DNA of 64,000 nucleotides from Schmidtea polychroa (Eukaryota). The notes beneath the pieces are model-generated. The model was not told the origin of the DNA, ran no database searches, and saw only the letters and a list, made by a program, of their open reading frames with translations. A program made the position numbers and the translations under genes. Shown here one piece after another: positions 26,297 through 56,916 of this stretch. Location: assembly GCA_044892525.1 (NCBI GenBank), contig JBJFYX010000144.1:62001-126000 (forward strand), given 5' to 3'. Positions within the stretch are counted from its first letter, which is position 1, and each line of letters opens with the position of its first letter.

Positions 26297-29200
26297 TGTT
26301 GGCATATGTGGGGAAGAGAAAAATTACGCACGCGCAACCTTCACTCATACAAGGCGTCATCGTTCCGCTCAGGCACTTCCCATACATACACCAGATGATC
26401 AAATGCATATTCCCACGTATGAGCCCGTGGTGATGTTCCACGTTGGTGCTGCTCACACGGGTCGGAAAAGGTTAGCAGGTGAGCCTCTGCCTTAAGACTA
26501 CTCCTAACCCTGTCTCGGTTCGGGTTCCATGGCGCCGTAGAAGGTCTTACCCATTCCTCTACACATCATTCGGTCCTTCCCTGGTCCAAGGGGACGACTC
26601 TGTAGTGCTACCTATATCTGATACCGTCCTATTGTTCACTTTTAATCCCATATCATGCATGCCAAAAACAATCACCGAGAGACAATAAAAATTATATTAC
26701 ATCCACAACAATAATTACATTTATAACAAGGAAAAAGGGGCTGTCACAAAAATAAATGTTCAATATTCACAAATACTCAAGTCCGCTTCCGAATCTTGCA
26801 GAATCAAGGCAATGGAAATCTGTCAGTCAAAGGACTCCCCATCAGCAAGCATCTCGTCGATGTCGACCGGCAATCGTTGGTTAGAGACGTATTTGATGCC
26901 CTCTGCGGGAATTACACGGAAAATTTCCTTCGTTGGAATTGAATGGCTGGAAGAGATTTCTTTTATGGTGGATTGGGCTACCGATAGTGACGCTTCGAGT
27001 GCGGCCATCGCATCTCGGCGTTTTTTATTCTTCTCGGCTCGAGTTGGCCGTTTCCGTTTGCGAGTAGACGGAGGGTTTTCTATGTTCGCGGTGCCGATTG
27101 GTGCTACCAAAATTGGAGCCAAGATGGGATCGGTAGGTCCACCGACCAAGGGTTGATGACTCGATAAGGTTGGAGCCGGGACGGGCGGCAGATAGGTACC
27201 ATGCCCTTGGCAGCTTGTTGAAGTTGATTGGGAGGCCTGATGGTGAGGGGGGAAGACATTGGTTTTCTCGATGACGGGAAATTCTCGGACCCGTTTGGCC
27301 AATTCTGCCTCCGTATATACTTTATGGAGGGCTTCCGATTGTGCTTTGATCGTGAGCCGCTGGCAACGGCTTTCCTCCAGCAGGCTGTCCCTGCAATGCT
27401 CTAATCGGAGAATTTTCTTGCGTTCCTCTTTCATTTGTGGCGGGGAGAACCACGTGCCTTCGTAGAGATCAATTCTCTTTTTCAATGCCCCGATATATAG
27501 GTGGAGCTGCGCGATATCTGCGTTTTTATCGGCGCAGGAGAGACATGGGCGAAGATTTTTTCCAGAGCTGGTAGAGGTATTCATCTAAAGAGTTTACAGA
27601 ATTTTTTATTATCAATTTTACAAAATTTATTGGCTAGGATTTTGTTCCTATTTTACATACGAGGTTCACCATTTTCGCAATCAAACCATTCAGTGGTGAT
27701 TCCAACACCCAAATTATCAGTCGGTGCCCCCATTCATCCAATTTCAAGCATTCAAATTCATCCCCTCAACCATCAACACCTAACGAGAAGAAAACGAAAA
27801 TTCTAGACATAATTTATTTGTCATCATTTTACAATCGGTACGTGTTATGAGTTTGACTATTCCCCTTTTCGCACTTGATCAGTCTAGTGCTGACAATACT
27901 AACCCCTTTATTTTATTTATCATTATCTGATGTTTGCGATTTTACTCCTCATTACTACGTTCTACACAACTAAACCGAGTCGTATTATAAAAGAAAAATT
28001 CGACATCCAATGGACCTCGTTATGTTATACTAAAGTAGTTCAAGTAGAGAAAAATAAAATAGAAAAAGAAAAAAAATTAACAGCAGAACATCTTTGGTTC
28101 ACCTTTAGTTTAGTTTATGATGGTTTGATTTTATTTAAATTTTTGCCGTGAGGTTGTCATGACGACGTTACGCAATATGTAGTTGTGTTAAAAGATCGTC
28201 TTTCGTTTACATGTGGCATGTAATTCAACATGTGACAATGCATGCTAAAGTAATGTTAGTTGTCCCTAGCTTATGAATCGGTTTTGGTGACGTGTTTGCT
28301 TCGAATGGTAGTTTAAGAGTGGGTGTCTGCCTTACGCACGTGATCTCTTTCTTTCGCCTGTGCACACAGTATCGTTTTCTCGATTAGCTTCCTCGTTGTT
28401 ACGTCACGATTATGTCACAGAACATGTTAGGACTCAGAACAATTTGTCGTCTACTGAGAAAGAATTTCCAGGTAGTATGTCAATGAGGCGGATTATCAAG
28501 ATTCAGTTGTCTGGGAGATTGATTAGAAGTATCCACCCAATCATTACGCGACAATTCACTAGCGGGTCAGAACTGATGATTTACTCTAGTCGTTATCAAC
28601 TCTTAGACATCTCTCTATCAACGCATTCACTAAACCTATGGCAGAGACGATTATCGCTCCCTCTCTTCGGCGGATTTTCCTCAGTCATACAATCCGGTGA
28701 ATAATAATCTGTCTGAAATTAGTTTGACAGTTTCCGATAAATTCGACTGCGGTTTCTCTAGCATCGATCGTAAATATTCCGATAATTTCTCGTGATTTGT
28801 TTGTTTTATTCTCAGAAAATCTAGGCTTATCAGTGGCCGTATAACCAACAATCTAACTCAAAAGTACACTGACTATGGGTTTCGTCGTAAATGTCCTGGC
28901 GATGTGGATTCTAGAAGATCTCGGGCTCTATGACATTCTCTGCGAACAACATTGGATTTTTTACGCAGCTATAGCTCCCCAATCACCAGATATTCTCGTG
29001 TCAATTTCCCGAGGGATATACGACATAGACTCTAACTTTCCAATGCGATTGATGGCGACTGGATGTAATGTTAAAAGACGTTGATTCGAAAATTTCCTGG
29101 AGTTTCTCATGATTTCATCTTCGCGACTACTCTTTTAAGAAGTGTATTTTCGACGATAGCGGTGGTCGATCGCACTCGATGAAGGAAATTTCACTCTTCA

Positions 29201-30498
29201 GCTATACTTCGACTCACGGAGTTTCCTCACCTCTCATGACCCACCCAAGAACGGCACTCATTTCTGCCGCCGTCCTTGCACCGTCATGGGAGACAATCAA
29301 CTCCTCTCCTCAAGCAATTCAAAATCAACTCCGACATTAATGGAAAAATTTTGTAAAACAAATAAAATGAATAAATCAGATTTACCCGGCGACCCCACCA
29401 TCTGGGTTCCAAGCATGATGTCTTCCGAGCCATTCAGATGCATGTCCCTCCGTACTGGACAATTTCCTCAAATCTTCTTCAACCTCGAAAATCGACTGAT
29501 ATCTTACTCCGTCGCAACGCATACTCGCAAACCCTTTCACAACGTATTTTCGCTCTGCCGCATCATGCCTGAAGGTCCCAGATAGTACAGTGGCCGGTAC
29601 CATGAAGAAAAAGGCTGCTGTTCATTTCAAATTGAATTTATTGAATAAAATTTATTCTACTTTTAATTATTTTCAACATTTTTACAGCAAATAACTATTC
29701 ATAATATCAATCGAATGTATACCTTTGAGTTTAAAACTGGATCGAATAGAATAATAAAGTCGTCTAAGTTCTCGGTACTTTCCGTAGGCTCTTAACCAGT
29801 AGTCTAAACTGGCTTATCGGCTGTAAGTGGTTTTGTAGGATTGCTTCGTAAACGAGTTCTAGTAGCTGCTAAGTGGTCCTGAAGTCCTGTAGAGTTTCGG
29901 GTTAGAATGATGATAATATTTTAAATAAACTTTTACCTGTAGAGTTTCGGGTTAGAATGATACTCTACAGATTTTTGTCGCTCTTTATATATTATTTTCT
30001 GTCCAATCAGGACGCGACCCGTTTGTATTTTTACTCTTTATTATTATTTTTATGTTTTTATCATCGTATATTAAATTTTTTTAATGGCTTGGCTTATTCT
30101 TATTATTATTTTATTTATTTTTTCTTATTTTTATTATTTTCTCTTCTATTTTTCTGCGGACTTATTGTTATTTTATTGTAATATTATTTTTTGTTTTAAT
30201 TAGACTTAAAATGGTTTATTTTTTATTTATTTCTTAAATTTCTCGTTTATTTGTTGTCACTTTTTTACTTATTCTATTTCTATTTTATCCGTTGTGTGTT
30301 TTAACTCGTTTTATTTCTAAATCTTAAGGGATTTATTGGGTTTTATTCAGTTTGTTTTACCTATTCTTATTCTCTTATTGATTTTTTATCGTTCCTTCCT
30401 ATTTACTAGTGAGATTTTTATATTTTTATCTTATTTATTATTCGAGGTTTACTTTTCTATTCGCTCCAGTTTTCTCCACTCTGAAATTTAGCCCAACA
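26297..30498 (-). repeat. 3' LTR (4202 bp)
   Basis: Near-identical to 52716-56916; TG..CA termini. Confidence 0.97.
26823..27584 (-). CDS. LTR-encoded 253-aa protein (Cys pair, coiled coil, Pro-rich segment, basic NLS-like RKRKRP..KNKKRR)
   Basis: Open in the 3' LTR; ATG directly follows an acceptor-like ctctttag. Confidence 0.7.
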   Translation of the reverse strand: MNTSTSSGKNLRPCLSCADKNADIAQLHLYIGALKKRIDLYEGTWFSPPQMKEERKKILRLEHCRDSLLEESRCQRLTIKAQSEALHKVYTEAELAKRVREFPVIEKTNVFPPHHQASQSTSTSCQGHGTYLPPVPAPTLSSHQPLVGGPTDPILAPILVAPIGTANIENPPSTRKRKRPTRAEKNKKRRDAMAALEASLSVAQSTIKEISSSHSIPTKEIFRVIPAEGIKYVSNQRLPVDIDEMLADGESFD

Positions 30499-30756
30499 AA
30501 TCACTCCGGGGCCCGTTAAAATTGCGCCCCGCAATTCACATAATATTATACATTCAAATCATACTTTCTTTCGGTATGACACATAATCTCACAATCAAAA
30601 TCCACACAGACCTAAAATCAAATTAACAACAAAAAAATACTTTAATTAAACAGAGAAAATGACAAATATAAGCAAGCAGTGGTCACTTAAGGTGACCGGT
30701 TTTATCATAAAACAATGAAACATCAAGAATTTTGTCAATAGTTGCAGTTCGAAGTG

Positions 30757-31416
30757 TTATGTGTGTTGTTCAGTTGCCGTTGATGATGGGAGATTTGGTT
30801 GTTGGGGTTCGATGTTGTAGTATATTCGGCGACTTGCGGATGGTCTGACTGTTTCTGCGATGGAGGTTCGTTGACGGAGGTTTTCTTGGATTACTTCAGC
30901 CATGTTAGCTTCTTGGGACCTTCGAGATGATCTTTCTGATACGGGGTGACTTTTCTTCCAAACTTTGCAGAGGTTATAGATTTTTAGCAGGGTGACTATT
31001 GTGATTAAGGTGGTCTCGGCGATTACCACATAGAGGAGTTCATAGGTGTGGTTTATTTCATTCGGGCTTTTTACTTGATCAGGTGGGTTTTGTGTTTCTT
31101 GGTGTTGGACCTGCTGTTCTAATTAATCGACTTGGTGAATTTGGTCCAGAATTCTTTTATCGATGATTTTACACATAGGGTTGTGATTACACATAATTCT
31201 GATGTTGTTGATGTAGTTTCGGGTTGCTCGAAGGTTATTGATAAGATTGGTTCTTATGGCATTTGAGCAGGTGCACGATGGGGTTGTTGGTTCGATTTTC
31301 TGATTGGGTTTTCTGTTGTCTCGAACCCGTTCGATTTGGGGTTTCACTGGCTGTCGTCGTGTTAGATCAAGAATTATCATCATCATCAGCGTTACAATGA
31401 TCGGTTGGCTTCTCAT
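30757..31416 (-). CDS. Small type I membrane protein, interrupted by one in-frame TAA (31123-31125)
   Basis: ORFs 31123..31431 and 30757..31029 are in the same frame, and the 31 codons between them are open. Signal-like MRSQPIIVTLMMMIILDL, 4 Cys, TM LLYVVIAETTLITIVTLLKIY. Confidence 0.55.
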
Positions 31417-31476
31417 GATACTGATATACATTTAGTTATTTTATACATATTTATATACATCGCTTTTTTGTTGGTT

Positions 31477-32199
31477 TTAATTTTGTCGTTTCTTTTTAGG
31501 GTCTCTTTCTCGGATTCTCATTAATTTAGATTCTGCTTTAATGACCCTATGTCGGAGTTCCGGCAACATTTCGAGCTGCCTATCTTTCTCTTGGACCTTG
31601 TCCGTCAAGTGCTTTATCTCTCTTTTCAAGGTTTTTATCTCCTTCTTCTTCTCCTCCAGGTTCCGTTCTAGTTCCAATTGTAGGAAATCATTTTCCTCTG
31701 GGTCGTTCGTCTTTGGACTTTGTTTCTGCCGTTTTATTTCTATTTCTCGGTATTTATTGATCCATTTCTCCATTTCTGCACTTTCCTGTACTTTTACTCC
31801 CAGCTGGTTTTCTAGACCCCTGATAGTTTCTTGTCGTTTCCTCGCTTCCGTTTTCCAGTAATCTTCAATCACTTCATTAGCCTTGAGACTGGCTCTTTCC
31901 TGCCATAATTCTTCCGCGATCTTTTCCCAATTTCTCCCTCGCTTTCTTTGCTCGTGAAGCCATTCATTTTCTTCCTCTACTTCTTTCTTTACTTCTTCTA
32001 GCAAGGTGTATTCTCTTTTCAATACTTTAATCATTTTTCGATTATCTCTCCACCTTTCTACTAATCTTTCGTTTTCTTGTCTCTCTTCTTGTAATTCTTC
32101 TTTGATAGTTTTCTTCCTCTCCACTTCCTCAACTTCAATTTCTCCCTCCTCTAGCTCGATTATCGATGTCATGATGGGTTGTCCGTTTTCAGTATTCAT
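31477..32199 (-). CDS. Accessory Trp-rich coiled-coil protein, 240 aa
   Basis: Long ORF with the element's A-rich codon usage; heptad-like E/K/R/L pattern; acceptor-like tattatag before the ATG. Confidence 0.75.
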   Translation of the reverse strand: MNTENGQPIMTSIIELEEGEIEVEEVERKKTIKEELQEERQENERLVERWRDNRKMIKVLKREYTLLEEVKKEVEEENEWLHEQRKRGRNWEKIAEELWQERASLKANEVIEDYWKTEARKRQETIRGLENQLGVKVQESAEMEKWINKYREIEIKRQKQSPKTNDPEENDFLQLELERNLEEKKKEIKTLKREIKHLTDKVQEKDRQLEMLPELRHRVIKAESKLMRIRERDPKKKRQN

Positions 32200-32374
32200 T
32201 TTCTATAATATATACATAATTAATGATTGCGCTACAGTGCGGCTTATGCTTATACAATTATATGTTATTTATATAATCAGGGCTACAGTCCCTTTCCTAC
32301 TTTTACTGTACCATTAATTTTTTTGTTGGGATATAGGTCCCGATTTTTATATTTTTTATCTTTTCCATTTATCT

Positions 32375-33397
32375 TTATACGAAGGTCTCTTCCTGGCCTA
32401 CATATCCTTCATCGCTGTCTATTGACGTTTGTAGTTGGATTGCGATGGGATCAAATGGGATGTAGTACCGGGGAATCTGCGCTCTAAGTTCCTGAACTTC
32501 GTCTCTTAGTGCTCTTGACGCATTGAGTTCCTCGTCCAACAGGTATGTTAGATACCTGGTTTCGTCGTCCCTTACTTCGATCTGTTTTTCTAACTCTTCC
32601 GCTTTTTCGCCGTTCTCCCATTTTTTGATCTCCTTTTCGAGGTTCTTGATATTTTCGTCATACATCTTCCTCTCGTTTTCCAATTTCTTGTTCTTACCGG
32701 CTAGCACTATATTCCTTTGTTCTAGTGCCCCCTTATAGCCGTTATTGTCTCTTTCAAGATCGAGTTCGACGATTCTACCTGACTGTTGCAGGATCATCTC
32801 TTCCATGGCGGTATTCTCCTGTTCCTTCATGGACAGTTTCATGGCTAGATGCCTTTCAAATTCCATGGCCTTGGTCTGCCAGGTTTGACTTCGTGCCGCT
32901 ATTTTCCTGAGCCTTCTTAGCTCTTCTCTCTGATCAAGGTTTTCCTCCCATTTCCCTTGTTCACTTTCGTATTCCAATCTCTGCGGCAATTCTCTCATCT
33001 CTTTTTGGATTTCTCGATGTTGTTTTTTCCACTTTCTGGCCTCTGCTAGTAGTTGGCGGGTCTTTCTTTCCTCCTTTTGTTTTTCTATTTCCCGCTTCTT
33101 ATTCTCATCCGTTAGTCTTTTTCTTGACTCCTGTACCAGCTGCGTCAGGTAATGCCCGTGCGCCTCTTGCCTGGTATTTTCTAATGCCGACCATTTGGCG
33201 GCTCTTTTGCAGGCCTCGGCCTCCGCCCGTAAATTCTGTACTAACCACTGGAATTGGTGGTTTTCCCATTCTCTCGCTTCTTCGAGGTAATTTCGTGTTT
33301 GGTTTGATAATTGTATCATCACTTTGGCCCATCTTTCTCTATGTATTCTACTGATGTTTATTTCGTTATTTGGGGCTTCCGTTTGATCTTGAGTCAT
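32375..33397 (-). CDS. Accessory Trp-rich coiled-coil protein, 340 aa
   Basis: Long ORF with coiled-coil composition; acceptor-like ttatttag 6 nt before the ATG. Confidence 0.8.
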   Translation of the reverse strand: MTQDQTEAPNNEINISRIHRERWAKVMIQLSNQTRNYLEEAREWENHQFQWLVQNLRAEAEACKRAAKWSALENTRQEAHGHYLTQLVQESRKRLTDENKKREIEKQKEERKTRQLLAEARKWKKQHREIQKEMRELPQRLEYESEQGKWEENLDQREELRRLRKIAARSQTWQTKAMEFERHLAMKLSMKEQENTAMEEMILQQSGRIVELDLERDNNGYKGALEQRNIVLAGKNKKLENERKMYDENIKNLEKEIKKWENGEKAEELEKQIEVRDDETRYLTYLLDEELNASRALRDEVQELRAQIPRYYIPFDPIAIQLQTSIDSDEGYVGQEETFV

Positions 33398-33614
33398 CTT
33401 TGTCTAAATAACGATATCATTAACTCAACGTTGTACGCTTATATTCGGCTTATTTTTTATTTATTTTTACAATTCGTTATAGGAGTTGTTTTAGGAGTTT
33501 TTCGCTTAAGTTTACCTTTATTAGATTCGGGGATTTTTCTACACTACTATATACTATTTTACGGGGTATATATGCCGATATTTACAATTAGTATATACAA
33601 AATTATTCGTCTCT

Positions 33615-35003
33615 CTACTCAGTCCTACTCTTCCCGTCTCGCCTCACCGCTATTTTTATGTATATAGTGTCGTTTCTCGTCATGTCTTCTGCTTTCCGCT
33701 GTAGGATGAAATTCGGTGCTCCAGTTGCTGGTCCTTCTTCTTCCAAGGGCCTTTGGTAACATACGAGGTTTCCCGCTGTATGGAAACTCTGTTCATGTAT
33801 ACTTTGATAGTTCATCATTACGAGGTCTATTTTTGCTTTGAATGACCATTCTATTAACTCGTCGTATAGCCCTTTGCACATCAAGAAGAATACTGAGAAA
33901 TGCGTTCCGTATGCACTTCCATCCCCATTGGGGTATGCTTTCATTTTCATTTTATACCCGTTTTTCCATGAGTAGAATGCTGGACTTAGTAATGTTGTAT
34001 CCTTTCCATTTCTCGCTCTCTGCATCTTCTCTTTTACTCCCGTTATTTTCCATATGTATGGAGCCGTGGGTATTAATTCGTTGAGGTTTAATTCGCTTAC
34101 TTTTTGATGTAGTTCTTTCACCATAATGTTGCTAGTTTCCACTAGATCTGTCTGTATCTTTGTACTTGTTCTCGCCTCTTCAAATGCTTCCTTTTCTTCC
34201 AATAGTTCTTTTACCAACGCTTTTAGCGAGACTATTTCTCTTTCTAAGTTTTCGGTTTTCCTTTCGTTTTCTTGTAATACTGTTGACCATATTTCCGCGT
34301 GTGTTGATACGTTTTCTGCTAGATGTTGGGGTAATTCCCCTCGGTGTAATTGTTTCTGACATCCCCATTTTCCTAGCACACACGTTATCTTTTTTCTTTC
34401 ACATTCTTTTAGATGTTGAGCGAGTTTTATTACTCCGGGTTTATCGCATTTGTTGGGGCATTCTCCTCTGAATTCTGCGCACACTTTCTTCTCTTGTATG
34501 TTGTGATGTTGACTGATTAGTTTTTTCCAGGTGTCGGTTTCTCCGCAATACTCACATTTCTCCAGTCTTTCTTCGCATCGACTTTGATGTTCTGCTTCTT
34601 CATTGACTTTAATCTCTTCTTGGCAACGTTTGCATTGACTGATTTTATACTCACATTGCTCCATATGTTGCCTCACTTCCCATATCACTCCTCGCCAATT
34701 ACATGGGGTGTTTTTACATCCTAGGTTTGCATTCAACATATCTTTTACAGCTGCTTTATCTTCGTTTGTATCTCCCAAACTTGTTATCATTGTTTCTTTG
34801 CATACTGGGCACCATTGTGGTCCCTTCTTTATTATCTCCTCTACACATTCTCTGCACATTCTGCATCCACATCTGGTTTGGTGAGGTTCTCTTAATAAGC
34901 TCTTGCATATTCCACACGTTACATGGTTGTGTATTCGAATTGTGGTGGACTTTCTGACTTGTTCAACAATTTCTTTGAATTCTTCTCGTTGTCGCTTATC
35001 CAT
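33615..35003 (-). CDS. Element-borne intronless TRAF (RING, TRAF zinc fingers, coiled coil, MATH)
   Basis: CGICKSLLREPHQTRCGCRMCRECV..CPVC; several TRAF zinc fingers; MATH YIWKITG..SPAFYSWKNGYKMKMKAYPNGDGSAYGTHFSVFF..KGLYDELIEWSF. Likely start MDKRQ at 35003. Confidence 0.93.
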   Translation of the reverse strand: MDKRQREEFKEIVEQVRKSTTIRIHNHVTCGICKSLLREPHQTRCGCRMCRECVEEIIKKGPQWCPVCKETMITSLGDTNEDKAAVKDMLNANLGCKNTPCNWRGVIWEVRQHMEQCEYKISQCKRCQEEIKVNEEAEHQSRCEERLEKCEYCGETDTWKKLISQHHNIQEKKVCAEFRGECPNKCDKPGVIKLAQHLKECERKKITCVLGKWGCQKQLHRGELPQHLAENVSTHAEIWSTVLQENERKTENLEREIVSLKALVKELLEEKEAFEEARTSTKIQTDLVETSNIMVKELHQKVSELNLNELIPTAPYIWKITGVKEKMQRARNGKDTTLLSPAFYSWKNGYKMKMKAYPNGDGSAYGTHFSVFFLMCKGLYDELIEWSFKAKIDLVMMNYQSIHEQSFHTAGNLVCYQRPLEEEGPATGAPNFILQRKAEDMTRNDTIYIKIAVRRDGKSRTE

Positions 35004-35092
35004 TTCTATAATTATATATATACATATATTCATTACTGGTACAGTTTCGTATTTTTATTTACAGTTATTTACATTGCTATTTTAGGTTATAT

Positions 35093-35452
35093 TTATTGGC
35101 TGGAAGAGTCGGCCTCTTGTCCGCCCTCTTCCCTGCTGGTTAACCATTCTGACCAGTCTTCTATCTCCTCTCGCTCCATCTCTTCCGCGATTCTTATTAA
35201 CTCCTCTTCTTGCACCTGGCTGTATCGTGATATTCGGTCTATCTCTCGCTGCATTTGTTCTATTTTTATTCGTTGGTCTTCGATTATTCTTACATAACTG
35301 AAGCCTTTATTTAAACTTTCGACTAAGCTTCTTTGTACAGCGAGTCCTTGTTCCTGTAAATTCGAAATCACTTGAGTTAACATTGCACATTGTTGTTTCC
35401 ACATCTCCTCGGTTGTCGTACTGTGATTTACTTCCTCGCCTATTCGTTCCAT
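35093..35452 (-). CDS. Accessory coiled-coil protein, about 119 aa
   Basis: ORF with coiled-coil composition; likely ATG at 35452. Confidence 0.6.
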   Translation of the reverse strand: MERIGEEVNHSTTTEEMWKQQCAMLTQVISNLQEQGLAVQRSLVESLNKGFSYVRIIEDQRIKIEQMQREIDRISRYSQVQEEELIRIAEEMEREEIEDWSEWLTSREEGGQEADSSSQ

Positions 35453-35620
35453 TCTTAATTTATATATACTTTTCAATCCTTATCTAATTTTATTTTCATA
35501 TTAATTATCCCCATCATTATATACTATTGATACCGCGCTTATATAAAAATATAGAATACTGTTATATAAATAAATATTACCTACTTACTTTTTACAATCT
35601 ATATACAGTCATAATCCTTT

Positions 35621-45517: not shown

Positions 45518-46542
45518 TGTCGTTGAAATTGTTCGTCAATTTCGGTTTCTGTCGTATTATCGGCAATTTCCTCTATGTTCAGCTTATTTGGTTGTTGATA
45601 GCTAGTTGATGGTTGGCTTGTTGTCCATATTTCAGCCCCTGTCGGCCATCTTACCAGAATTGGTGATCTTTCTCCAGCTCCTTCATCGCTGTCTTCCAAT
45701 ATAATTTCCTCGATTTCCTCGGTTTCATTCGATTTACTCGCCACTTTGTTAGGGCTTGGTGTACTCAAGCTACCTTTCGTAGGTTTACTGGATTTGCTCT
45801 TCTTTTTAATCGGTTTTCCCAATGTTTCTGCCATTGTCAATACATTGATCTCCCCCAATCTCATGGGTGTTATTCCGACATCTGCATTATCATCCAACGA
45901 TTTTCCGAATAGTTGTAGGTGAAATGGAGTTTCGTATGCTAATTTCTTTTTTAACTCTCTGATCTTTGTGGTTGGATGTACTTCTGTATCCTCAATGCTT
46001 TTGTCGGGATACTTGACTCGGATACGATACCTTTCCTGGGTATCTTGTGCCCATTCTTGGTTTCTCCATTTCCTAATAATTTGTTCTAGCTGTTCTGGGT
46101 ACCATTCGTTATATTGTCGGTATTCCTCAATCGCTTTCGCCATTTCTCTTAGATTGTGGATATTCTCTGATGTCTTTAGGATGATGTTAGCCAATGCTAT
46201 TACTTGACGTTTTTGATTTTTTGCTCCCGTTGCTAAGATATCACCTAATTGTTTATATCTTTCCTTCTCTTCTCGTTCTCGAGCTTCCATCGCTTCTTCG
46301 CTGTCCATATCGGCATATTCGCGTTCTTTCTTTCTCATCGCATGAATATGTCTAGTTTCCATTTCACTTTCTGACGTAACATCCGTTTCGCTTTCGTCGT
46401 CCGATATCGATTCTATTTCGTCCTCTTCGTATTTTGGAGGTTCATCTTCCTCTTCTTCTGATTCACTTTCTGTCTCACCAATGTCTGTTTCTACGAAAAT
46501 CCCTTTCCTGATTTCCCATTCTTTGTTTTCCGCATTCCACAT
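45469..46542 (-). CDS. ORF2, 357 aa: acidic tract plus ubiquitin-like domain; in frame with gag after a single TGA
   Basis: RYRIRVKYPDKSIEDTEVHPTTKIRELKKKL..HLQLFGKSLDDNADV follows the ubiquitin pattern (QIFVKT..TIENVKAKI..RLIFAGKQLEDGRTL). Confidence 0.8.
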   Translation of the reverse strand: MWNAENKEWEIRKGIFVETDIGETESESEEEEDEPPKYEEDEIESISDDESETDVTSESEMETRHIHAMRKKEREYADMDSEEAMEAREREEKERYKQLGDILATGAKNQKRQVIALANIILKTSENIHNLREMAKAIEEYRQYNEWYPEQLEQIIRKWRNQEWAQDTQERYRIRVKYPDKSIEDTEVHPTTKIRELKKKLAYETPFHLQLFGKSLDDNADVGITPMRLGEINVLTMAETLGKPIKKKSKSSKPTKGSLSTPSPNKVASKSNETEEIEEIILEDSDEGAGERSPILVRWPTGAEIWTTSQPSTSYQQPNKLNIEEIADNTTETEIDEQFQRQKKDQRKQYQKVKLTK

Positions 46543-46548
46543 CCTTTC

Positions 46549-49497
46549 TCATGGGGTTCGTCTGCAGGATCTAGTACTCAGTTTCTTTATTTTCCCTTGA
46601 AGCTCTTTTTCCTTTAGCCATTGTTGATGAATTTCAATTATCTCCACTGATTTTTGGTATAGCGTTTTCATCCTGTCCCGTATCTCTTTCTGGTATGTTA
46701 CATCTCTTGTTCGGAATTCGTCCATGGGTAATATTCTGATGATTTGATGATTATCCCACATTCCCATTTCGCTTAGCGAGGTGTCGTCTTCGGCCCGTAA
46801 TATTATTTTATCGTACATCAGGACTACATCATCTATCATCCCGTCGCTACTCTCGCTTCGTACTTTTTCCGTTACCTCTTGGTTTATCTTGGTTACTAAG
46901 TCATCCACCGTACTCTGATTACTCATCTTTATTCGTCGTTTCTCCTCGTTTGGTAACCATATGGTTATTTCTAATTTCTGCGGTTGCGTTTCTTTCAACC
47001 TTCCATATTTGTGGATCAAATTTATGGTTCTCCAATCACTCATTCGGAGCAGTTCTGTATCTCGCAGTCGGCTCATTAGTTCATGCATGTCTGCAGTTCG
47101 TCTTGTTATGAGCAAATCCCAGTTATCTTCAACTTGTTCTTGGATTTGTTTGATTAATTTATCTAGATTTCGTCGCAAGGTGCATTGTTTTATTTGTTCC
47201 AGCTTCAGCTTGATGTTAAAGTCATACTCGGCCTTGGCGTCTTTAGCCCATTCGTGAATATTTGCTGGTTGCTTCTCTTTATGCAATTTCAATATTTGAG
47301 TTTCTCCTGGCCAGATCAATGCATCTATTAGGTGCATGTCTGGTTTGATTTGTTCTCCTTGATATTGATACAGGTATTCTTTCTTTCTCGAGCTGCCCAA
47401 ATGTTCTCTTATCCAATCGAAAAGATCGTCTGTAACTGCATTTTTTATCCATATTCTCTCGAGTCCTTTACTCGTTCCGATTTTTATTACATAGCGTGTT
47501 GTCTCCGCTTGTTTCATTTTTTCCATATACTTCTTTATTATCGCTTTTTCCTCGTTTGGTATTAGATCTTTTTCGTTTCTTTCTAGTTTCATTATCTTTT
47601 GTATGAAGCGTCTGTATGGTATGATGTCAATGAATTCCTGGTTTCTTACCACCACTGGAAGTATTTCCTTTACTTGTTTTATCGCTTCTTCTCTTTCTTT
47701 TCTCAATTTCATTTCGATATTCTCGTCTTCGCTTTCGCTTGTCACGTCGCTTTCACTTTCATCCTCATCTGCTCCGATCTTTTCTCTTAGTTGGTCGATA
47801 TTTTCATTTAACTGTAACATTTCTCCACCAAGGCTACTCACGTAATCCTCATCGTCATCTGTTGACGACACCTTCTTTGTTGTCCTCATCATATTAATTC
47901 GCAAATTTCTCATTCTTGGTACTTTCTTTAACTTTTTGTTCTCGAATGTCGTTAGCTCCTCTGAGTCTAATTCTTGTATCATATCATGATTTAGATGATT
48001 AATCCGTTTTTTATTTTTGTTATTTTCCGCTTCTGCTTCTGTTTTTGTTTTCTCATTTTCTCTTTCGATTTTATCTTTTATCTTTTTCCAAAATATTTTC
48101 TGAATTCTCTGATTTCCTTTTAGCGGTGTTGTTGAATTTTCCTTTTTTGCTGCTGTAATTGTTTCTTTCGGTTTCTCGGGTTCGCTCATAGGTACAACTC
48201 TTGGATTTTTACCGTAATTGTAACAATATTGCTCTTTTATCTCCCTTACCATTCTCATCATATTTATTCGTAATGGTTGTTCTTGTCGTTGCTGAATTCG
48301 CTCTCTTTTTATCCTTTCTTCTTCAGCTTGTAGTCTTTGCCATTCTTGTGCATGTTGTTGCACTTCATAATTATTAAGATTCTCGGTGCTCCTCATCATG
48401 CGTATATTCTGGGTTTGTTGTGCTACTGGTTCTTGTCTCGGTCTCATCATTTGTTGCATCATCTGTTTCATTTGTGAAATTTCTTGCATCACGTTCATTT
48501 GCTTTCCCTCACTAGGATTACTTTGTCGTTGCGGATTTGATGCATAGTTATTATTTCGCTGTGGTGGTCGTTGTTGTTGGCTCCTTTCTCGACAGTCTCT
48601 TGAGATATGACCTGGTTGACCGCAGTTAAAACATCCTCTCAATTGGCATATATTTTCCGTGTGTCCTCGTCGTCCACACCTATTGCAATTTGCGTTTCGG
48701 TAACAATCTCTATCCCAATGTCCTGGTTTACCGCATATTCGGCATTGTTTGTTATCGTTCATATTTCGTCGATTATTAAAGTTGTTCCCATTGTTCGAGT
48801 TGTTGCGTTCACTGTTATTCCCATTTGATCGTCCTTGTGGTGGTTTGAAGATTTGATGTGCTCCTGGTATAAACTGATTCATCTTGGGTTCATGATTGTT
48901 GTTATCTCCGTTTTCCGTTTTCACCGTTGCTGTAGCGATTCTTCCCTCCTCTTGCATGACATTCATTTGTGCTGGGAGGTGTAGTTCGCATCTTGTGGCC
49001 CAATCTATGGCTTCTTCTAGTGTTTTACACATTTGACATCCCACCGAGGCCCTTACCTCTTCTCGGCGCAGTCCTTCTATGAAGTAACCAATTAGATTTT
49101 CCTCCGGCAAGTTTCCGTTCATGGCCTTTTTTGCCAATCTTCGCAATTCACTCGCATATAACGTTATGGATTCATTTGCTCTTTGTTTTCTACTTGCCAG
49201 TTCACCTAACGCTTGATTTATCGGTTTGCTGGCTCCGAAGGTTTTCCTCAAAAATGTTTTGATGCTTTCCCAATTGTCTAATTTCGTATTTCTTTCTTTT
49301 GCTTCTAGATACACTTCGAGTGCGCTATCGCACAAAAACAGAGGCATTCGTTTACTAATTGCTTCCGCTGTCCATCCGCACACATCGATATAGACTTCAA
49401 AATTTGTTATGAACGTTGCCAACTTGTTCGCATTCCCGTTAAACGGTTCGCCTCTAAATTTTTCTTTATACTCGTCGGTTTTTACCACATTCATCAT
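46549..49497 (-). CDS. gag: Gag, 982 aa: capsid, three CCHC knuckles, C-terminal extension with two ubiquitin-like domains
   Basis: FNGNANKLATFITNFE..W; KQRANESITLYASELRRLA..FIEGL; CRICGKPGHWDRDC, CNRCGRRGHTENIC, CFNCGQPGHISRDC; UBL-like segments at about 47280-47500 and 46725-46980. Confidence 0.93.
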   Translation of the reverse strand: MMNVVKTDEYKEKFRGEPFNGNANKLATFITNFEVYIDVCGWTAEAISKRMPLFLCDSALEVYLEAKERNTKLDNWESIKTFLRKTFGASKPINQALGELASRKQRANESITLYASELRRLAKKAMNGNLPEENLIGYFIEGLRREEVRASVGCQMCKTLEEAIDWATRCELHLPAQMNVMQEEGRIATATVKTENGDNNNHEPKMNQFIPGAHQIFKPPQGRSNGNNSERNNSNNGNNFNNRRNMNDNKQCRICGKPGHWDRDCYRNANCNRCGRRGHTENICQLRGCFNCGQPGHISRDCRERSQQQRPPQRNNNYASNPQRQSNPSEGKQMNVMQEISQMKQMMQQMMRPRQEPVAQQTQNIRMMRSTENLNNYEVQQHAQEWQRLQAEEERIKRERIQQRQEQPLRINMMRMVREIKEQYCYNYGKNPRVVPMSEPEKPKETITAAKKENSTTPLKGNQRIQKIFWKKIKDKIERENEKTKTEAEAENNKNKKRINHLNHDMIQELDSEELTTFENKKLKKVPRMRNLRINMMRTTKKVSSTDDDEDYVSSLGGEMLQLNENIDQLREKIGADEDESESDVTSESEDENIEMKLRKEREEAIKQVKEILPVVVRNQEFIDIIPYRRFIQKIMKLERNEKDLIPNEEKAIIKKYMEKMKQAETTRYVIKIGTSKGLERIWIKNAVTDDLFDWIREHLGSSRKKEYLYQYQGEQIKPDMHLIDALIWPGETQILKLHKEKQPANIHEWAKDAKAEYDFNIKLKLEQIKQCTLRRNLDKLIKQIQEQVEDNWDLLITRRTADMHELMSRLRDTELLRMSDWRTINLIHKYGRLKETQPQKLEITIWLPNEEKRRIKMSNQSTVDDLVTKINQEVTEKVRSESSDGMIDDVVLMYDKIILRAEDDTSLSEMGMWDNHQIIRILPMDEFRTRDVTYQKEIRDRMKTLYQKSVEIIEIHQQWLKEKELQGKIKKLSTRSCRRTP

Positions 49498-50883
49498 GAC
49501 TGGTTCTTGTAACTCTATTGTTTCTTTTAAATTTTCCAGCGATGTCGCTAAATTATAGACGGATAATTCTTCTGTTGACCCGGTTAGGTTGTTTGTTATA
49601 TCGGATAGGCTTTCTCTACTTCTAGATCGACTGGGCGTATGTCCGGCTGTGGGGTTTTCTTGATCGTATATCGGTGTTTTGTGGGGTCTTTTTGCTCCTT
49701 GTGATATTCCTCTCTGCTGCCTAAATGATCGTCCTCTTTTGAGTTGATCTAATTCGTCTCCTGAAAATAATACGTCTCCTGGCTTACTTGAAGATCTAAG
49801 GTTGGGTTTATCCGTGATTTTCTTTTTACTCTTTTCTGTCTTTCCACGTGGGTTTTTCTACGGTTAGCGGCTGCTGAATTGGTCGAGTTCGGTTCTGATA
49901 GTGTTTTCTTCGAGGAATATTCTGCGTAATTTCTCGGCTGATTTCCGGAGGAGATATCTGAGTCCTTGATTGACTTCTGCTAGTACGTCGATGCTAAGTA
50001 TTTCGATAATTCCGTCGTAGATAAAGATGTCGTTGTCGTCCTCCGTATTCGGATTGATTTGTTTTTTCCTTTGTGCGGGTTCTGAATTGCTTTTCCTGGG
50101 TTGTTTGTATATTCTCTAGATTCCTTTTGAGCTGGTTCTGAATTGACTTGGTTGGATAGATATCTACAATGAAAAAATGATATCGTGTTGCATTTGCTTA
50201 CACGAATCAATCATTCCTTTTTACCATATTCAAGCACAGACACCGTTTTTGGGCCTCTGTTATACTTCTCTTCATTTCCCCTCATACACTTCTTCGTGGA
50301 ATATAATTACCCATCAACCCATATTTTTCGTCGATTTTAAATTATCTATTTGGGGTAGTAACAATTATCTATATAGTCGTATAAATTATCTATAGTTAGC
50401 ATTTATAATATCGATAGGTCGTTGTCAGTTACTGCTTATTACCCCCCATATTTTCCTTAATCCTTTTACGCGGTTCCGCTATTTTATTTACTCTTTCGTC
50501 TCTGTTTCCTTTTACTCGGTTCTACTCTGGAACCAAAAACAAAATTCGTTTAACCGGTTTAAACCCAAAAAAAATTCTGTAGAACTTTGTCTACCTATCT
50601 GGGATCCCCTTTAATTAATTAATTATTTCCTCTTTGGTTCATCATCTATTCATACTTATTCATTGTTTCTATTATCTCCTGATTCATTTTCCTTTTCCGT
50701 TTCTCCTTCTTCACTAAAAGAATTTTACTATCATCTTTTACGAGCTCGTTTAATCCTTTCTAAATTCAAATTCCATATTTCAAACTCAATTTGCTTCTAG
50801 CTAGCTTTAATATTCTATCTCACTAGTAATTTAAATGTTATCAACTTGTAGCTTAAATGCTATCTCACTATTACTTTAGGCCT

Positions 50884-51180
50884 TTACGACTGGCTGGCAC
50901 TATTCAACAGCTCAATCTTCCTCTCCTGACCGGTTGGACTATTCAACAACTCGATCTTACGACTGGCTGGCACTATTCAACAGCTCAATCTTCTTCTCCT
51001 GACCGGTTGGACTATTCAACAACTCGATCTTACGACTGGCTGGCACTATTCAACAGCTCAATCTTCTTCTCCTGACCGGTTGGACTATTCAACAACTCGG
51101 CCTTATTATCCCCGACTGGCTGGACTTTTCACAGCTCAGTTTCAATTTCCCTGACCGGCTGGACTTTTCGACAGCTCGGC
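50884..51180. repeat. 73-bp tandem repeat x3 plus a degenerate fourth unit in the element leader
   Basis: Units start at 50884, 50957 and 51030; each unit consists of two related about 36-bp halves. Confidence 0.9.
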
Positions 51181-51772
51181 CCTAATGTCTCTAAACTCTG
51201 CATGCTTCCGTTCCTTTTCTGTCTTTATTCTATACTGTCATCTTCCTATTTTTACTTTTATTTGTCGACCTAATCTGTACCGCTTTGGAATGTTTCCCCT
51301 TTTCCCCTTGCTCAAAACACAAAACGATCGCATTGATCCATTTCTACATTGGTATGGTGATCAGCCATACCGCAGAAACTTTTCAATATTCGCGATGGTA
51401 CCTCGCTTTACATCTCTTACTCGGGGTGATCGGTTGTCCCTCCCCAAACGGTTTCCAACATCGTACCTCCCGAAGGTGGCTCGGTTTATTCCCCCTTTAA
51501 CCCTATGACGGGACTAGTTCCACTTTAAATAATCATTTTAAATTTTAAAATGCCCTTTCTTCATGGTGAAAATTATAACAACACAAATCAATTTATAACT
51601 TCGTATAATGAAATGAATACACAAAAAGGATTTATTAGTTATTTCCTCCACATTACAGATAATATATGCTATCATTATAAAACATTACCGAATTAAATCA
51701 GAACAAAAATATCAAAATGTTTAGTCTAATTGTTAATCATCCAATTTCCTTCACCGAGCGACGATCGCGTAC

Positions 51773-52252
51773 CTAACTGAAATAGATTGTGTGCTTCTCT
51801 TTTATTACACATGTGCACATAGAACAACGGATTAAACTGGCGGCGCATTCGTCACAATGGCTAAGGTGCCCACAAGGTAGAATCAGAGTTTTGACAGGTC
51901 GCATCTTGCAAATGTTACAAGTTCTCAAGGCCGCTGCTTTCTCTACTATTGATGTTCGTATCCGCTGAGACAGAGTTTTGACTTGTTCGCGTATCCTCAC
52001 ATATTCGATGTTCAGAGCGGGGTCGTCGAGTCGTTGCTGCATCCATTGGTAATGGGTAGACAAGTCGGTATCGGTATTTGTTGATCCTAATCTGTCGGTT
52101 AGAAAGTTTTGTTTGGATATCAGCGGTGCGTTGTGGCTTTGTTGTTCTAACAGTTCTATTTGTTTCAGTTTTTCCTTTAATGTTTTTATTGAATCATTTT
52201 CTATTTCGATGAACCGGCTTAGCTGTTGTAGATGTTGTCTAGCTTCCGACAT
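51773..52252 (-). CDS. Coiled-coil + C-terminal IAP/MDM2-type RING protein, 159 aa
   Basis: CNICKMRPVKTLILPCGHLSHCDECAASLIRCSMCTCVIKEKHTIYFS ending at the stop; no BIR domain. Confidence 0.85.
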   Translation of the reverse strand: MSEARQHLQQLSRFIEIENDSIKTLKEKLKQIELLEQQSHNAPLISKQNFLTDRLGSTNTDTDLSTHYQWMQQRLDDPALNIEYVRIREQVKTLSQRIRTSIVEKAAALRTCNICKMRPVKTLILPCGHLSHCDECAASLIRCSMCTCVIKEKHTIYFS

Positions 52253-52690: not shown

Positions 52691-52708
52691 ATCCCGGCTG
52701 AGCCCCCA
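52691..52708 (-). other. Primer binding site, tRNA-Pro-like
   Basis: TGGGGGCTCAGCCGGGAT versus the established MLV PBS-Pro TGGGGGCTCGTCCGGGAT (16/18); lies 7 nt inside the 5' LTR boundary. Confidence 0.8.
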
Positions 52709-52715
52709 AAAATCA

Positions 52716-55700
52716 TGTTGGCATATGTGGGGAAGAGAAAAATTACGCACGCGCAACCTTCACTCATACAAGGCGTCATCGTTCCGCTCAGGCACTTCCC
52801 ATACATACACCAGATGATCAAATGCATATTCCCACGTATGAGCCCGTGGTGATGTTCCACGTTGGTGCTGCTCACACGGGTCGGAAAAGGTTAGCAGGTG
52901 AGCCTCTGCCTTAAGACTACTCCTAACCCTGTCTCGGTTCGGGTTCCATGGCGCCGTAGAAGGTCTTACCCATTCCTCTACACATCATTCGGTCCTTCCC
53001 TGGTCCAAGGGGACGACTCTGTAGTGCTACCTATATCTGATACCGTCCTATTGTTCACTTTTAATCCCATATCATGCATGCCAAAAACAATCACCGAGAG
53101 ACAATAAAAATTATATTACATCCACAACAATAATTACATTTATAACAAGGAAAAAGGGGCTGTCACAAAAATAAATGTTCAATATTCACAAATACTCAAG
53201 TCCGCTTCCGAATCTTGCAGAATCAAGGCAATGGAAATCTGTCAGTCAAAGGACTCTCCATCAGCAAGCATCTCGTCGATGTCGACCGGCAATCGTTGGT
53301 TAGAGACGTATTTGATGCCCTCTGCGGGAATTACACGGAAAATTTCCTTCGTTGGAATTGAATGGCTGGAAGAGATTTCTTTTATGGTGGATTGGGCTAC
53401 CGATAGTGACGCTTCGAGTGCGGCCATCGCATCTCGGCGTTTTTTATTCTTCTCGGCTCGAGTTGGCCGTTTCCGTTTGCGAGTAGACGGAGGGTTTTCT
53501 ATGTTCGCGGTGCCGATTGGTGCTACCAAAATTGGAGCCAAGATGGGATCGGTAGGTCCACCGACCAAGGGTTGATGACTCGATAAGGTTGGAGCCGGGA
53601 CGGGCGGCAGATAGGTACCATGCCCTTGGCAGCTTGTTGAAGTTGATTGGGAGGCCTGATGGTGAGGGGGAAGACATTGGTTTTCTCGATGACGGGAAAT
53701 TCTCGGACCCGTTTGGCCAATTCTGCCTCCGTATATACTTTATGGAGGGCTTCCGATTGTGCTTTGATCGTGAGCCGCTGGCAACGGCTTTCCTCCAGCA
53801 GGCTGTCCCTGCAATGCTCTAATCGGAGAATTTTCTTGCGTTCCTCTTTCATTTGTGGCGGGGAGAACCACGTGCCTTCGTAGAGATCAATTCTCTTTTT
53901 CAATGCCCCGATATATAGGTGGAGCTGCGCGATATCTGCGTTTTTATCGGCGCAGGAGAGACATGGGCGAAGATTTTTTCCAGAGCTGGTAGAGGTATTC
54001 ATCTAAAGAGTTTACAGAATTTTTTATTATCAATTTTACAAAATTTATTGGCTAGGATTTTGTTCCTATTTTACATACGAGGTTCACCATTTTCGCAATC
54101 AAACCATTCAGTGGTGATTCCAACACCCAAATTATCAGTCGGTGCCCCCATTCATCCAATTTCAAGCATTCAAATTCATCCCCTCAACCATCAACACCTA
54201 ACGAGAAGAAAACGAAAATTCTAGACATAATTTATTTGTCATCATTTTACAATCGGTACGTGTTATGAGTTTGACTATTCCCCTTTTCGCACTTGATCAG
54301 TCTAGTGCTGACAATACTAACCCCTTTATTTTATTTATCATTATCTGATGTTTGCGATTTTACTCCTCATTACTACGTTCTACACAACTAAACCGAGTCG
54401 TATTATAAAAGAAAAATTCGACATCCAATGGACCTCGTTATGTTATACTAAAGTAGTTCAAGTAGAGAAAAATAAAATAGAAAAAGAAAAAAAATTAACA
54501 GCAGAACATCTTTGGTTCACCTTTAGTTTAGTTTATGATGGTTTGATTTTATTTAAATTTTTGCCGTGAGGTTGTCATGACGACGTTACGCAATATGTAG
54601 TTGTGTTAAAAGATCGTCTTTCGTTTACATGTGGCATGTAATTCAACATGTGACAATGCATGCTAAAGTAATGTTAGTTGTCCCTAGCTTATGAATCGGT
54701 TTTGGTGACGTGTTTGCTTCGAATGGTAGTTTAAGAGTGGGTGTCTGCCTTACGCACGTGATCTCTTTCTTTCGCCTGTGCACACAGTATCGTTTTCTCG
54801 ATTAGCTTCCTCGTTGTTACGTCACGATTATGTCACAGAACATGTTAGGACTCAGAACAATTTGTCGTCTACTGAGAAAGAATTTCCAGGTAGTATGTCA
54901 ATGAGGCGGATTATCAAGATTCAGTTGTCTGGGAGATTGATTAGAAGTATCCACCCAATCATTACGCGACAATTCACTAGCGGGTCAGAACTGATGATTT
55001 ACTCTAGTCGTTATCAACTCTTAGACATCTCTCTATCAACGCATTCACTAAACCTATGGCAGAGACGATTATCGCTCCCTCTCTTCGGCGGATTTTCCTC
55101 AGTCATACAATCCGGTGAATAATAATCTGTCTGAAATTAGTTTGACAGTTTCCGATAAATTCGACTGCGGTTTCTCTAGCATCGATCGTAAATATTCCGA
55201 TAATTTCTCGTGATTTGTTTGTTTTATTCTCAGAAAATCTAGGCTTATCAGTGGCCGTATAACCAACAATCTAACTCAAAAGTACACTGACTATGGGTTT
55301 CGTCGTAAATGTCCTGGCGATGTGGATTCTAGAAGATCTCGGGCTCTATGACATTCTCTGCGAACAACATTGGATTTTTTACGCAGCTATAGCTCCCCAA
55401 TCACCAGATATTCTCGTGTCAATTTCCCGAGGGATATACGACATAGACTCTAACTTTCCAATGCGATTGATGGCGACTGGATGTAATGTTAAAAGACGTT
55501 GATTCGACAATTTCCTGGAGTTTCTCATGATTTCATCTTCGCGACTACTCTTTTAAGAAGTGTATTTTCGACGATAGCGGTGGTCGATCGCACTCGATGA
55601 AGGAAATTTCACTCTTCAGCTATACTTCGAGTCACGGAGTTTCCTCACCTCTCATGACCCACCCAAGAACGGCACTCATTTCTGCCGCCGTCCTTGCACC

Positions 55701-56916
55701 GTCATGGGAGACAATCAACTCCTCTCCTCAAGCAATTCAAAATCAACTCCGACATTAATGGAAAAATTTTGTAAAACAAATAAAATGAATAAATCAGATT
55801 TACCCGGCGACCCCACCATCTGGGTTCCAAGCATGATGTCTTCCGAGCCATTCAGATGCATGTCCCTCCGTACTGGACAATTTCCTCAAATCTTCTTCAA
55901 CCTCGAAAATCGACTGATATCTTACTCCGTCGCAACGCATACTCGCAAACCCTTTCACAACGTATTTTCGCTCTGCCGCATCATGCCTGAAGGTCCCAAA
56001 TAGTACAGTGGCCGGTACCATGAAGAAAAAGGCTGCTGTTCATTTCAAATTGAATTTATTGAATAAAATTTATTCTACTTTTCATTATTTTCAACATTTT
56101 TACAGCAAATAACTATTCATAATATCAATCGAATGTATACCTTTGAGTTTAAAACTGGATCGAATAGAATAATAAAGTCGTCTAAGTTCTCGGTACTTTC
56201 CGTAGGCTCTTAACCAGTAGTCTAAAATGGCTTATCGGCTGTAAGTGGTTTTGTAGGATTGCTTCGTAAACGAGTTCTAGTAAGTTCTAAGTGGTCCTGA
56301 AGTCCTGTAGAGTTTCGGGTTAGAATGATGATAATATTTTAAATAAACTTTTACCTGTAGAGTTTCGGGTTAGAATGATACTCTACAGATTTTTGTCGCT
56401 CTTTATATATTATTTTCTGTCCAATCAGGACGCGACCCGTTTGTATTTTTACTCTTTATTATTATTTTTATGTTTTTATCATCGTATATTAAATTTTTTT
56501 AATGGCTTGGCTTATTCTTATTATTATTTTATTTATTTTTTCTTATTTTTATTATTTTCTCTTCTATTTTTCTGCGGACTTATTGTTATTTTATTGTAAT
56601 ATTATTTTTTGTTTTAATTAGACTTAAAATGGTTTATTTTTTATTTATTTCTTAAATTTCTCGTTTATTTGTTGTCACTTTTTTACTTATTCTATTTCTA
56701 TTTTATCCGTTGTGTGTTTTAACTCGTTTTATTTCTAAATCTTAAGGGATTTATTGGGTTTTATTCAGTTTGTTTTACCTATTCTTATTCTCTTATTGAT
56801 TTTTTATCGTTCCTTCCTATTTACTAGTGAGATTTTTATATTTTTATCTTATTTATTATTCGAGGTTTACTTTTCTATTCGCTCCAGTTTTCTCCACTCT
56901 GAAATTTAGCCCAACA
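52716..56916 (-). repeat. 5' LTR (4201 bp)
   Basis: By eye, differs from the 3' LTR by about 9 substitutions and one G in a homopolymer (G6 at 27247-27252 versus G5 at 53666-53670). Confidence 0.97.
53242..54002 (-). pseudogene. 5' LTR copy of the LTR ORF, frameshifted by 1 nt
   Basis: Split into 159-aa and 108-aa ORFs by G5 versus G6; could be a homopolymer assembly error. Confidence 0.6.

Follow-up and report, generated by a model that had tools for sequence, protein, structure and literature searches.

A recent, already mutated copy of a giant Burro-type Ty3/Gypsy element in Schmidtea polychroa, from a family with an envelope gene and signalling cargo under purifying selection

A stretch of 64,000 nucleotides from the planarian Schmidtea polychroa (GCA_044892525.1, contig JBJFYX010000144.1, positions 62,001 to 126,000; hereafter the window) carries a retroelement of 30,620 bp with long terminal repeats (LTRs), which lies at 26297-56916 and is read on the minus strand; coordinates are those of the whole window, forward strand. 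We propose that it belongs to an abundant family of Burro-type Ty3/Gypsy elements, that this copy inserted recently and has since mutated, and that the family likely builds enveloped particles from a giant polyprotein and likely uses a cargo of TRAF, RING, ubiquitin-like, Bcl-2-like and ankyrin modules to keep host cells permissive. We put the probability of this reading at roughly 0.6. The window locus is one broken copy among hundreds.

Results

Selection on env and cargo

The ratio of non-synonymous to synonymous substitution (dN/dS) was estimated by pooled pairwise comparison of copies without a stop or frameshift; removal of four duplicates left 26 loci per region, of which 7-25 were used. 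Both env (its N-terminal part, the first 800 bp) and the Bcl-2-like domain gave a ratio of 0.02, the gag and ubiquitin-like region 0.05, the third ubiquitin-like domain 0.13 and the C-terminus of the polyprotein 0.18. Among the separate open reading frames (ORFs) the values were 0.06 and 0.13 for two coiled-coil ORFs of 340 and 240 amino acids (aa), 0.15 for the TRAF ORF, 0.19 for an ORF of 120 aa and 0.24 for the RING ORF (9 of 11 loci). An ORF inside the LTR gave 0.19 (24 of 26 loci), also across LTR types that are 80% alike, and was open in 24 of the 25 LTR copies covered. Judged by these ratios (0.02-0.24, the halves of the last internal ORF apart), env and cargo are under purifying selection in the family, and because of this selection the cargo is probably functional.

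One alternative is that env and cargo are passengers without present function. The two halves of the last ORF gave higher ratios (0.34 and 0.49), as might be expected of passengers, and many copies are broken: the 150 best matches to the reverse transcriptase (RT), all at least 98% identical and drawn from 10,074 first-look candidates, divide into 72 in frames of at least 4,700 aa and 78 in shorter frames. The low ratios on all other modules, at a synonymous divergence of 3-32%, nevertheless largely refute this alternative, which we consider very improbable. Between subfamilies the last ORF is about 29% identical, and the adjacent ORFs 69-96%.

Lesions of the window copy

Four lesions were found in the window copy: a stop at 46549-46551, a frameshift near 45500, a stop at 31123-31125 and a frameshift near 53665 in the LTR ORF of the 5' LTR. 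Many sister copies encode a single polyprotein of 4,705-4,817 aa, and the 4.4-kb gag-to-env junction is one open frame throughout in 16 of the 30 best loci. The first stop was present in three of these 30, namely the window and two loci with identical flanks, and because the flanks are the same the three were counted as one insertion. The frame change near 45500 was shared by five of the 30, the three stop-bearing loci and one tandem pair. Given these counts, programmed readthrough or frameshifting at the two breaks was rejected. The last ORF, which forms a single frame of 208-224 aa in 23 of 27 other loci, is divided into two small ORFs in the window. Read from its sequence, the window copy is unable to make the family polyprotein; it is broken and the family intact. 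The few lesions in 30 kb, at about 0.2% LTR divergence, fit neutral decay after insertion, and the copy could move only by using proteins of other copies. The initial annotation of the window, which had described a complete and very young element, was thus borne out as to age, the LTRs being 99.76% identical, but not as to completeness.

Boundaries, priming site and copy number

By self-BLAST the LTRs were the sole long repeat pair of the element. The 5' LTR of 4,201 bp (52716-56916, minus strand) and the 3' LTR of 4,202 bp (26297-30498, minus strand) differ by nine substitutions and one 1-bp indel, close to the ten or so differences between 4.2-kb LTRs first noted. The LTR ends are TG...CA, and GTAG stands on both flanks (26293-26296 and 56917-56920) as the 4-bp target-site duplication (TSD) that had been claimed. 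The predicted primer-binding site (PBS) was also recovered, 7 nt inside the 5' LTR, as 18 nt (52691-52708, minus strand) complementary to host tRNA-Pro(TGG). Of these, 15 bases pair with the 3' end of host tRNA-Pro(TGG) genes and the remaining three fit the added CCA, an assignment made with ARAGORN on two loci, one of which gave tRNA calls. The site was invariant in all 13 loci that hold the LTR-PBS junction, and the copies diverge directly beyond it. At L132 (G000:C1, approximately 130.90-130.95 Mb and beyond), tRNA-Pro(TGG) genes are arrayed in tandem at a period of 475 bp, and the T-arm/acceptor pattern of this tRNA, the primer of the element family, has 1,602 matches in the genome.

A genome search for the exact LTR-PBS junction gave 559 occurrences, against 0 with the reversed control. 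In four other copies the two LTRs differ at 1, 0, 0 and 4 of approximately 1,380 bases, and because these pairs are almost identical the family is young. The initial annotation had suggested a count of genomic copies and a check that the ORF set is conserved; the junctions are numerous, sister loci repeat the order of the ORFs, and the cargo is under selection. No polypurine tract was seen at the 3' LTR junction, which is G-rich with no purine run, and a candidate TATA box at LTR position 3774 was rejected as it is not kept in the diverged LTR type. A 73-bp tandem repeat occupies part of the leader (50884-51181), and all long ORFs of the element are on the minus strand. Taken together, the LTR ends, the short TSD, the tRNA PBS, the order protease (PR), RT, RNase H (RH), integrase (IN) and a Ty3-like RT place the element among the Ty3/Gypsy LTR retrotransposons (Metaviridae). 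Its size, the multi-kb LTRs, the giant ORF of the family with env in frame and the set of modules agree with the Burro-type assignment made initially.

The element and its flanks stand three times in the assembly (G000:C144, C1:6.9 Mb and C1:7.17 Mb), with small differences between them, and this may be a segmental duplication or assembly redundancy. Three independent young insertions were rejected, as the two closest matches carry the window's own flanks. Such local redundancy could be taken as a sign of an assembly artefact that joined unrelated pieces. However, independent loci with TSDs of their own (TGAG, GTTA) agree with the window element in their ends and spacing, and sister loci keep the order of its ORFs; we regard an artefact as extremely improbable. 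In two pairs of near-identical copies (L011/L012 and L020/L021) the members lie 26.4 kb apart, which is one LTR-to-LTR period and is consistent with tandem elements that have an LTR in common. In four other loci (L094, L098, L110 and L050) the interior is about 92% identical to the window element and the LTRs only about 80%, with the RING ORF staying close, a mismatch that reads as LTR exchange between subfamilies.

Organization of the polyprotein

All parts of the polyprotein are encoded on the minus strand. Gag with two ubiquitin-like domains occupies 46549-49857 and ends here in the premature stop (Pfam, profile and locus alignment); it comprises a capsid-like part (48970-49497), CCHC knuckles (48583-48747, Pfam) and, by profile, ubiquitin-like domains at 47275-47502 and 46723-46983. 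The continuation (45469-46548) holds a third such domain (45826-46035, profile) and ends in the frameshift. A diverged Bcl-2-like domain (44795-45268) precedes Env (42896-44701). Next come Pol (38918-42301), two ankyrin-repeat blocks fused behind the integrase (37256-38638, Pfam) and a C-terminus (35621-36622) with a second hydrophobic signal-like segment, a cysteine-containing region and a transmembrane-like segment. By hydropathy, hydrophobic segments lie at residues 852, 2972 and 3232 of the polyprotein. A Pfam scan of 18 ORFs returned gag, CCHC knuckles, Monjiviricetes_fusion, protease, RT, RNase H, integrase, ankyrins, the RING ORF and a RING-MATH ORF.

Env matched Monjiviricetes_fusion (PF24664) at E 7e-72 and has 16 cysteines. 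Its homology to chuvirus and mononegavirus glycoproteins, a predicted internal signal peptide, read by eye (44639-44701), a cysteine-rich ectodomain and a predicted transmembrane anchor (42896-42982) agree with an HSV/gB-type (class III) envelope protein. Pol is intact as first described, with PR DTGA, RT YIDD, RNase H DASG, IN HHCC and D-D-E, and the GPY motif all in one open frame of 3,304 codons. Compared with solved structures, RT-RNase H matched Ty3 RT best (E 1e-82), the best retroviral RT being at 2e-28; by these scores the RT is Ty3-like, and not retroviral as in Retroviridae.

These results bear on the strong form of the idea in the initial annotation, a giant retrovirus that infects one animal from another and suppresses apoptosis in the manner of large DNA viruses. 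The cysteine-rich Env under strong purifying selection, the hundreds of young copies and the hypervariable second membrane protein would be expected of such a virus, whereas the Ty3-like RT and the broken window copy would not. Moreover, env genes of this type have diverged with pol and with their hosts, which is consistent with mostly vertical descent (PMC13524379), and we find an agent passing between animals decidedly improbable.

The ubiquitin-like profile was built from seven segments, of which the window supplied three and two other families of this genome four, and retrieved ubiquitin, ISG15 and ubiquilin domains; a single-sequence PDB search with the third domain alone gave no match. 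In the Bcl-2-like domain the GGW motif is kept and the NWGR (BH1) motif is absent from the alignments. Alone, the domain gave weak scores (E 0.02-0.05); a single-sequence PDB search of the region was without match, an atlas search gave no family, and a single-sequence fold was uninformative (predicted local distance difference test, pLDDT, 50). The 60 PDB sequences listed for a profile of seven members were all of the Bcl-2 family (best E 6e-4), a result favoured by the choice of members, since these were picked by their GGW motif.

At least two other env-carrying families are present in the genome (L137-L151); their env is approximately 34-35% identical, and two ubiquitin-like domains and a Bcl-2-like domain occupy the corresponding position. 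A further, distant relative, on a contig of 29,990 bp (P0009), combines a ubiquitin-like domain and an env of 40% identity with three protease-like domains, C2H2 fingers and RT-RH-IN, and it ends in a signal/anchor segment with the layout of the polyprotein C-terminus here; P0009 has no GGW motif before env. A possible dUTPase-like segment between PR and RT (41666-41956) gave no Pfam match at E 1 and is conserved in P0009.

Separate cargo ORFs and the LTR ORF

The separate ORFs are likewise on the minus strand. The first (51773-52252, 159 aa) has a coiled coil and an IAP-type C-terminal RING, its best matches being the RINGs of cIAP1 and XIAP, and no BIR domain was detected in it or in any other of the 18 ORFs scanned with Pfam. 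Downstream of pol lie an ORF of about 120 aa with a coiled coil (35093-35452), an intronless full-length TRAF with RING, zinc fingers, coiled coil and a TRAF2/3-like MATH domain (33615-35033), the coiled-coil ORFs of 340 aa (32375-33397) and 240 aa (31477-32199), and the last internal ORF (30757-31431), a predicted small membrane protein interrupted here by the stop at 31123-31125. An ORF of 253 aa with a basic stretch is open in the 3' LTR (26823-27584), and its 5' LTR copy (53242-54002) is the frameshifted one. Profile and library searches placed none of the following in a family: the three coiled-coil ORFs, the LTR ORF, the membrane segment at the polyprotein C-terminus and the last ORF. 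An atlas search likewise gave none for the LTR ORF.

More than eight accessory ORFs and domains were found, in agreement with the 'at least eight' noted at the outset. The claim that one mobile unit combines a fusion glycoprotein with Bcl-2, IAP-RING, TRAF, ankyrin and ubiquitin-like modules holds in that each of them is present, with the reservations that the 'IAP' is a RING only and that the Bcl-2-like domain has no NWGR. Because NWGR and BIR are missing, the cargo is probably not a classical anti-apoptotic pair, that is, a BH3-binding Bcl-2 protein or a BIR-bearing IAP.

Another possibility is that the cargo serves particle building and polyprotein handling, with the ubiquitin-like domains as spacers or for proteasome handling, the Bcl-2-like domain as a membrane-docking helix bundle and the ankyrins as an integrase tether, so that only TRAF and RING would touch host pathways. 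In line with this, the polyprotein itself contains the ubiquitin-like and Bcl-2-like modules as fused parts. The Bcl-2-like domain is also without NWGR and, in diverged families, directly precedes the signal peptide of env; several relatives of env lack a GGW motif at that place, and no BIR was found. A free-standing full-length TRAF and an IAP-type RING under selection have, on the other hand, no obvious role in a particle, and we consider this alternative unlikely.

A TRAF-like host gene in at least two pieces (RING and MATH) lies in the window at 10719-12292 on the minus strand, 14 kb from the element. Recent capture of the TRAF ORF from the neighbouring host array was unsupported, identity to this gene being approximately 25% over 129 residues. 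The array comprises at least 150 matches (150 of 1,113 candidates were scored), and almost all of them fall near one or the other end of the largest contig (C1:2-17 Mb and C1:257-268 Mb); expansion of TRAF genes in planarians has been published (PMC6109357). The window also holds a broken hAT transposase with a BED finger and dimerisation domain (16808-18660, minus strand) and an RT fragment of another retroelement (6066-6893, minus strand).

Candidate splice signals and RNA data

An acceptor-like YAG was found 0-6 nt upstream of six of the seven cargo starts, compared with 141 of 684 ATGs in the element (P approximately 4e-4), and these sites are kept in the copies examined despite T/C and A/G swaps. 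A donor-like GGTAAG(A/T) lies near the end of the LTR (52964-52970, and also near 26550; minus strand), with 26 occurrences in the 26 LTR-bearing loci, inside a generally conserved block. The combination suggests that spliced subgenomic RNAs may be made. Contigs of runs guessed to be RNA covered 30, 24 and 15 of 30 element bins; none of the sequences listed as holding the element is on record as RNA. Coverage was not counted as evidence of expression because the runs were only guessed to be RNA and there was no silent control stretch. A 3.4-kb joint (31325-34762) recurred in contigs of two putative RNA runs from different studies and would join the TRAF RING to the 3' end; it was rejected as a splice, as its ends (CC..CT) are non-canonical, and looks like a microhomology deletion.

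Discussion

We propose the following route for an intact member of the family. The part of the chain with Gag, three ubiquitin-like domains and the Bcl-2-like domain would stay in the cytosol. To judge from the hydrophobic segments, an internal signal peptide would direct Env into the secretory pathway, the Env transmembrane segment would bring the chain back to the cytosol for PR-RT-RH-IN and the ankyrins, and the second signal and anchor at the C-terminus would give a further membrane protein, the chain being cut by signal peptidase and by the element's own protease. The separate cargo ORFs may be expressed from spliced RNAs in which acceptors immediately upstream of the individual starts receive a short leader from the LTR. 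Env would take the element from one cell of the animal to another; by analogy with the Drosophila errantiviruses, spread between cells of one animal is its most likely service. The cargo would then act, most likely, on ubiquitin-dependent death and innate signalling.

A fuller version of this proposal is a complex errantivirus in which the LTR leader is spliced to seven accessory mRNAs, a polyprotein threaded through the endoplasmic reticulum yields two glycoproteins, a third, rapidly evolving membrane protein determines cell tropism or prevents superinfection, enveloped particles pass between planarian cells, and TRAF, RING and a non-canonical Bcl-2 fold shut down death and innate signalling. 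We regard this fuller version as possible but rather unlikely.

Several points weigh against the interpretation that we favour. The pairs used for dN/dS share ancestry and so are non-independent, and the estimates were run without an RT or non-coding control. The signal peptide of Env, read by eye, falls below the hydropathy cut-off used. The Bcl-2-like assignment is below the Pfam cut-off in all seven aligned members, and in a fold search with a model of pLDDT 61, in which 41 of 47 rows were Bcl-xL, Mcl-1 or Bcl-2, none had an E value under 0.001. Two of the six YAG sites use a second methionine, chosen post hoc; otherwise the count is 4 of 7 (P approximately 0.04-0.06). There was no canonical splice joint among the 15 joints listed of 29, in a read stretch that excluded the LTR. 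Finally, the comparison of the window family with Burro1-4 draws on their published description.

Whether the cargo of Burro elements does anything is a question that has stood since 2019. Purifying selection on env, the Bcl-2-like and ubiquitin-like domains, TRAF, RING and the LTR ORF suggests that the family depends on them and points to single proteins that can be assayed. If the family is indeed enveloped and modulates cell death, work on planarian stem cells and regeneration would be affected, as Burro RNA rises on loss of PIWI (PMC8532177). In transcriptomes, the TRAF, RING and ankyrin ORFs of the element could be mistaken for host genes.

Comparison with known systems

The gypsy and ZAM errantiviruses of Drosophila use env to pass from the soma into the germ line of the same animal. 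The window element resembles these in its Ty3/Gypsy pol and its possession of env; they differ in that their env is of the F type and forms a spliced ORF of its own behind pol, in their size of 7-8 kb and in their lack of signalling cargo. The several accessory ORFs, one of them inside the LTR, recall the complex retroviruses. Poxviral Bcl-2-like proteins have Bcl-2 folds with a degenerate BH1 and act on innate signalling. Profile and family searches of the element ORFs found no homology to accessory proteins of complex retroviruses or poxviruses. Closer relatives are numerous: a search of 1.84 billion representatives returned 42 env relatives at E 1e-30 or better, and in 13 of the 16 scanned env is fused to protease, in six also to RT; a metagenome scan with env gave no locus.

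Six GAG-ENV-POL errantiviruses with an HSV/gB-type env have been catalogued in S. mediterranea (Chary and Hayashi, PMC13524379). Smed_errantivirus_1 to _6 share the GAG-ENV-POL order and a homologous env with the window family. Under the 98% copy rule the window env matches none of the six rows, the closest being Smed_errantivirus_5 at approximately 58% (105 of 182, hand count), which has one intact copy listed whereas the window family has hundreds of copies. The tRNA entry is 'none' for all six, in contrast to the tRNA-Pro PBS found here, and the word 'accessory' does not occur in the main text of that paper. By these comparisons the window family seems to stand apart from the six catalogued elements.

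The nearest published likeness is with Burro. Burro1/GYPSM1 and Burro-2 to -4 of S. mediterranea and a Burro-like element of Dugesia (Girardia) tigrina share with the window family a size of about 30 kb, a giant ORF and env between gag and pol. Burro elements exceed 30 kb, with an ORF1 of 4,873 aa that contains Gag-CCHC, MATH/TRAF, Ubi/SUMO-like, BCL-2, env, PR, dUTPase-like, RT, RH, IN, BIR and ankyrin domains; env, with mononegavirus matches, lies in frame between gag and pol, and the elements were proposed to be integrated proviruses that meddle with apoptosis and ubiquitination (PMC6431247, 2019). The novelty entertained in the initial annotation is therefore lost, since both the architecture and the hypotheses had already been described. 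Burro1 is transcribed and controlled by PIWI, its RNA being found in S. mediterranea tissues on knock-down of smedwi-2 (PMC8532177), and transcripts of traf, E3-ligase and ankyrin genes are targets of PIWI-interacting RNAs (PMC6824462). A literature search on splicing and accessory ORFs in Burro elements found only PMC6431247, and the section text of that paper makes no mention of an LTR ORF, a second or third predicted membrane protein, a tRNA-Pro PBS or acceptor-like sites. Ubiquitin-like, BCL-2-like, ankyrin and MATH/TRAF modules are common to Burro and the window family. Against the published descriptions, a full-length TRAF is encoded here by its own ORF downstream of pol, whereas TRAF lies inside ORF1 in Burro1 and upstream in the D. 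tigrina element; BIR is reported for Burro1-4, whereas the window element has an IAP-type RING without BIR; and the polyprotein is 4,705-4,817 aa here compared with nearly 4,900 aa in Burro (PMC6431247). What the present analysis adds to the published text is evidence that the cargo is under selection, the identity of the primer tRNA, an ORF in the LTR that is likewise selected, a 3' membrane protein that is hypervariable, and a testable model of splicing.

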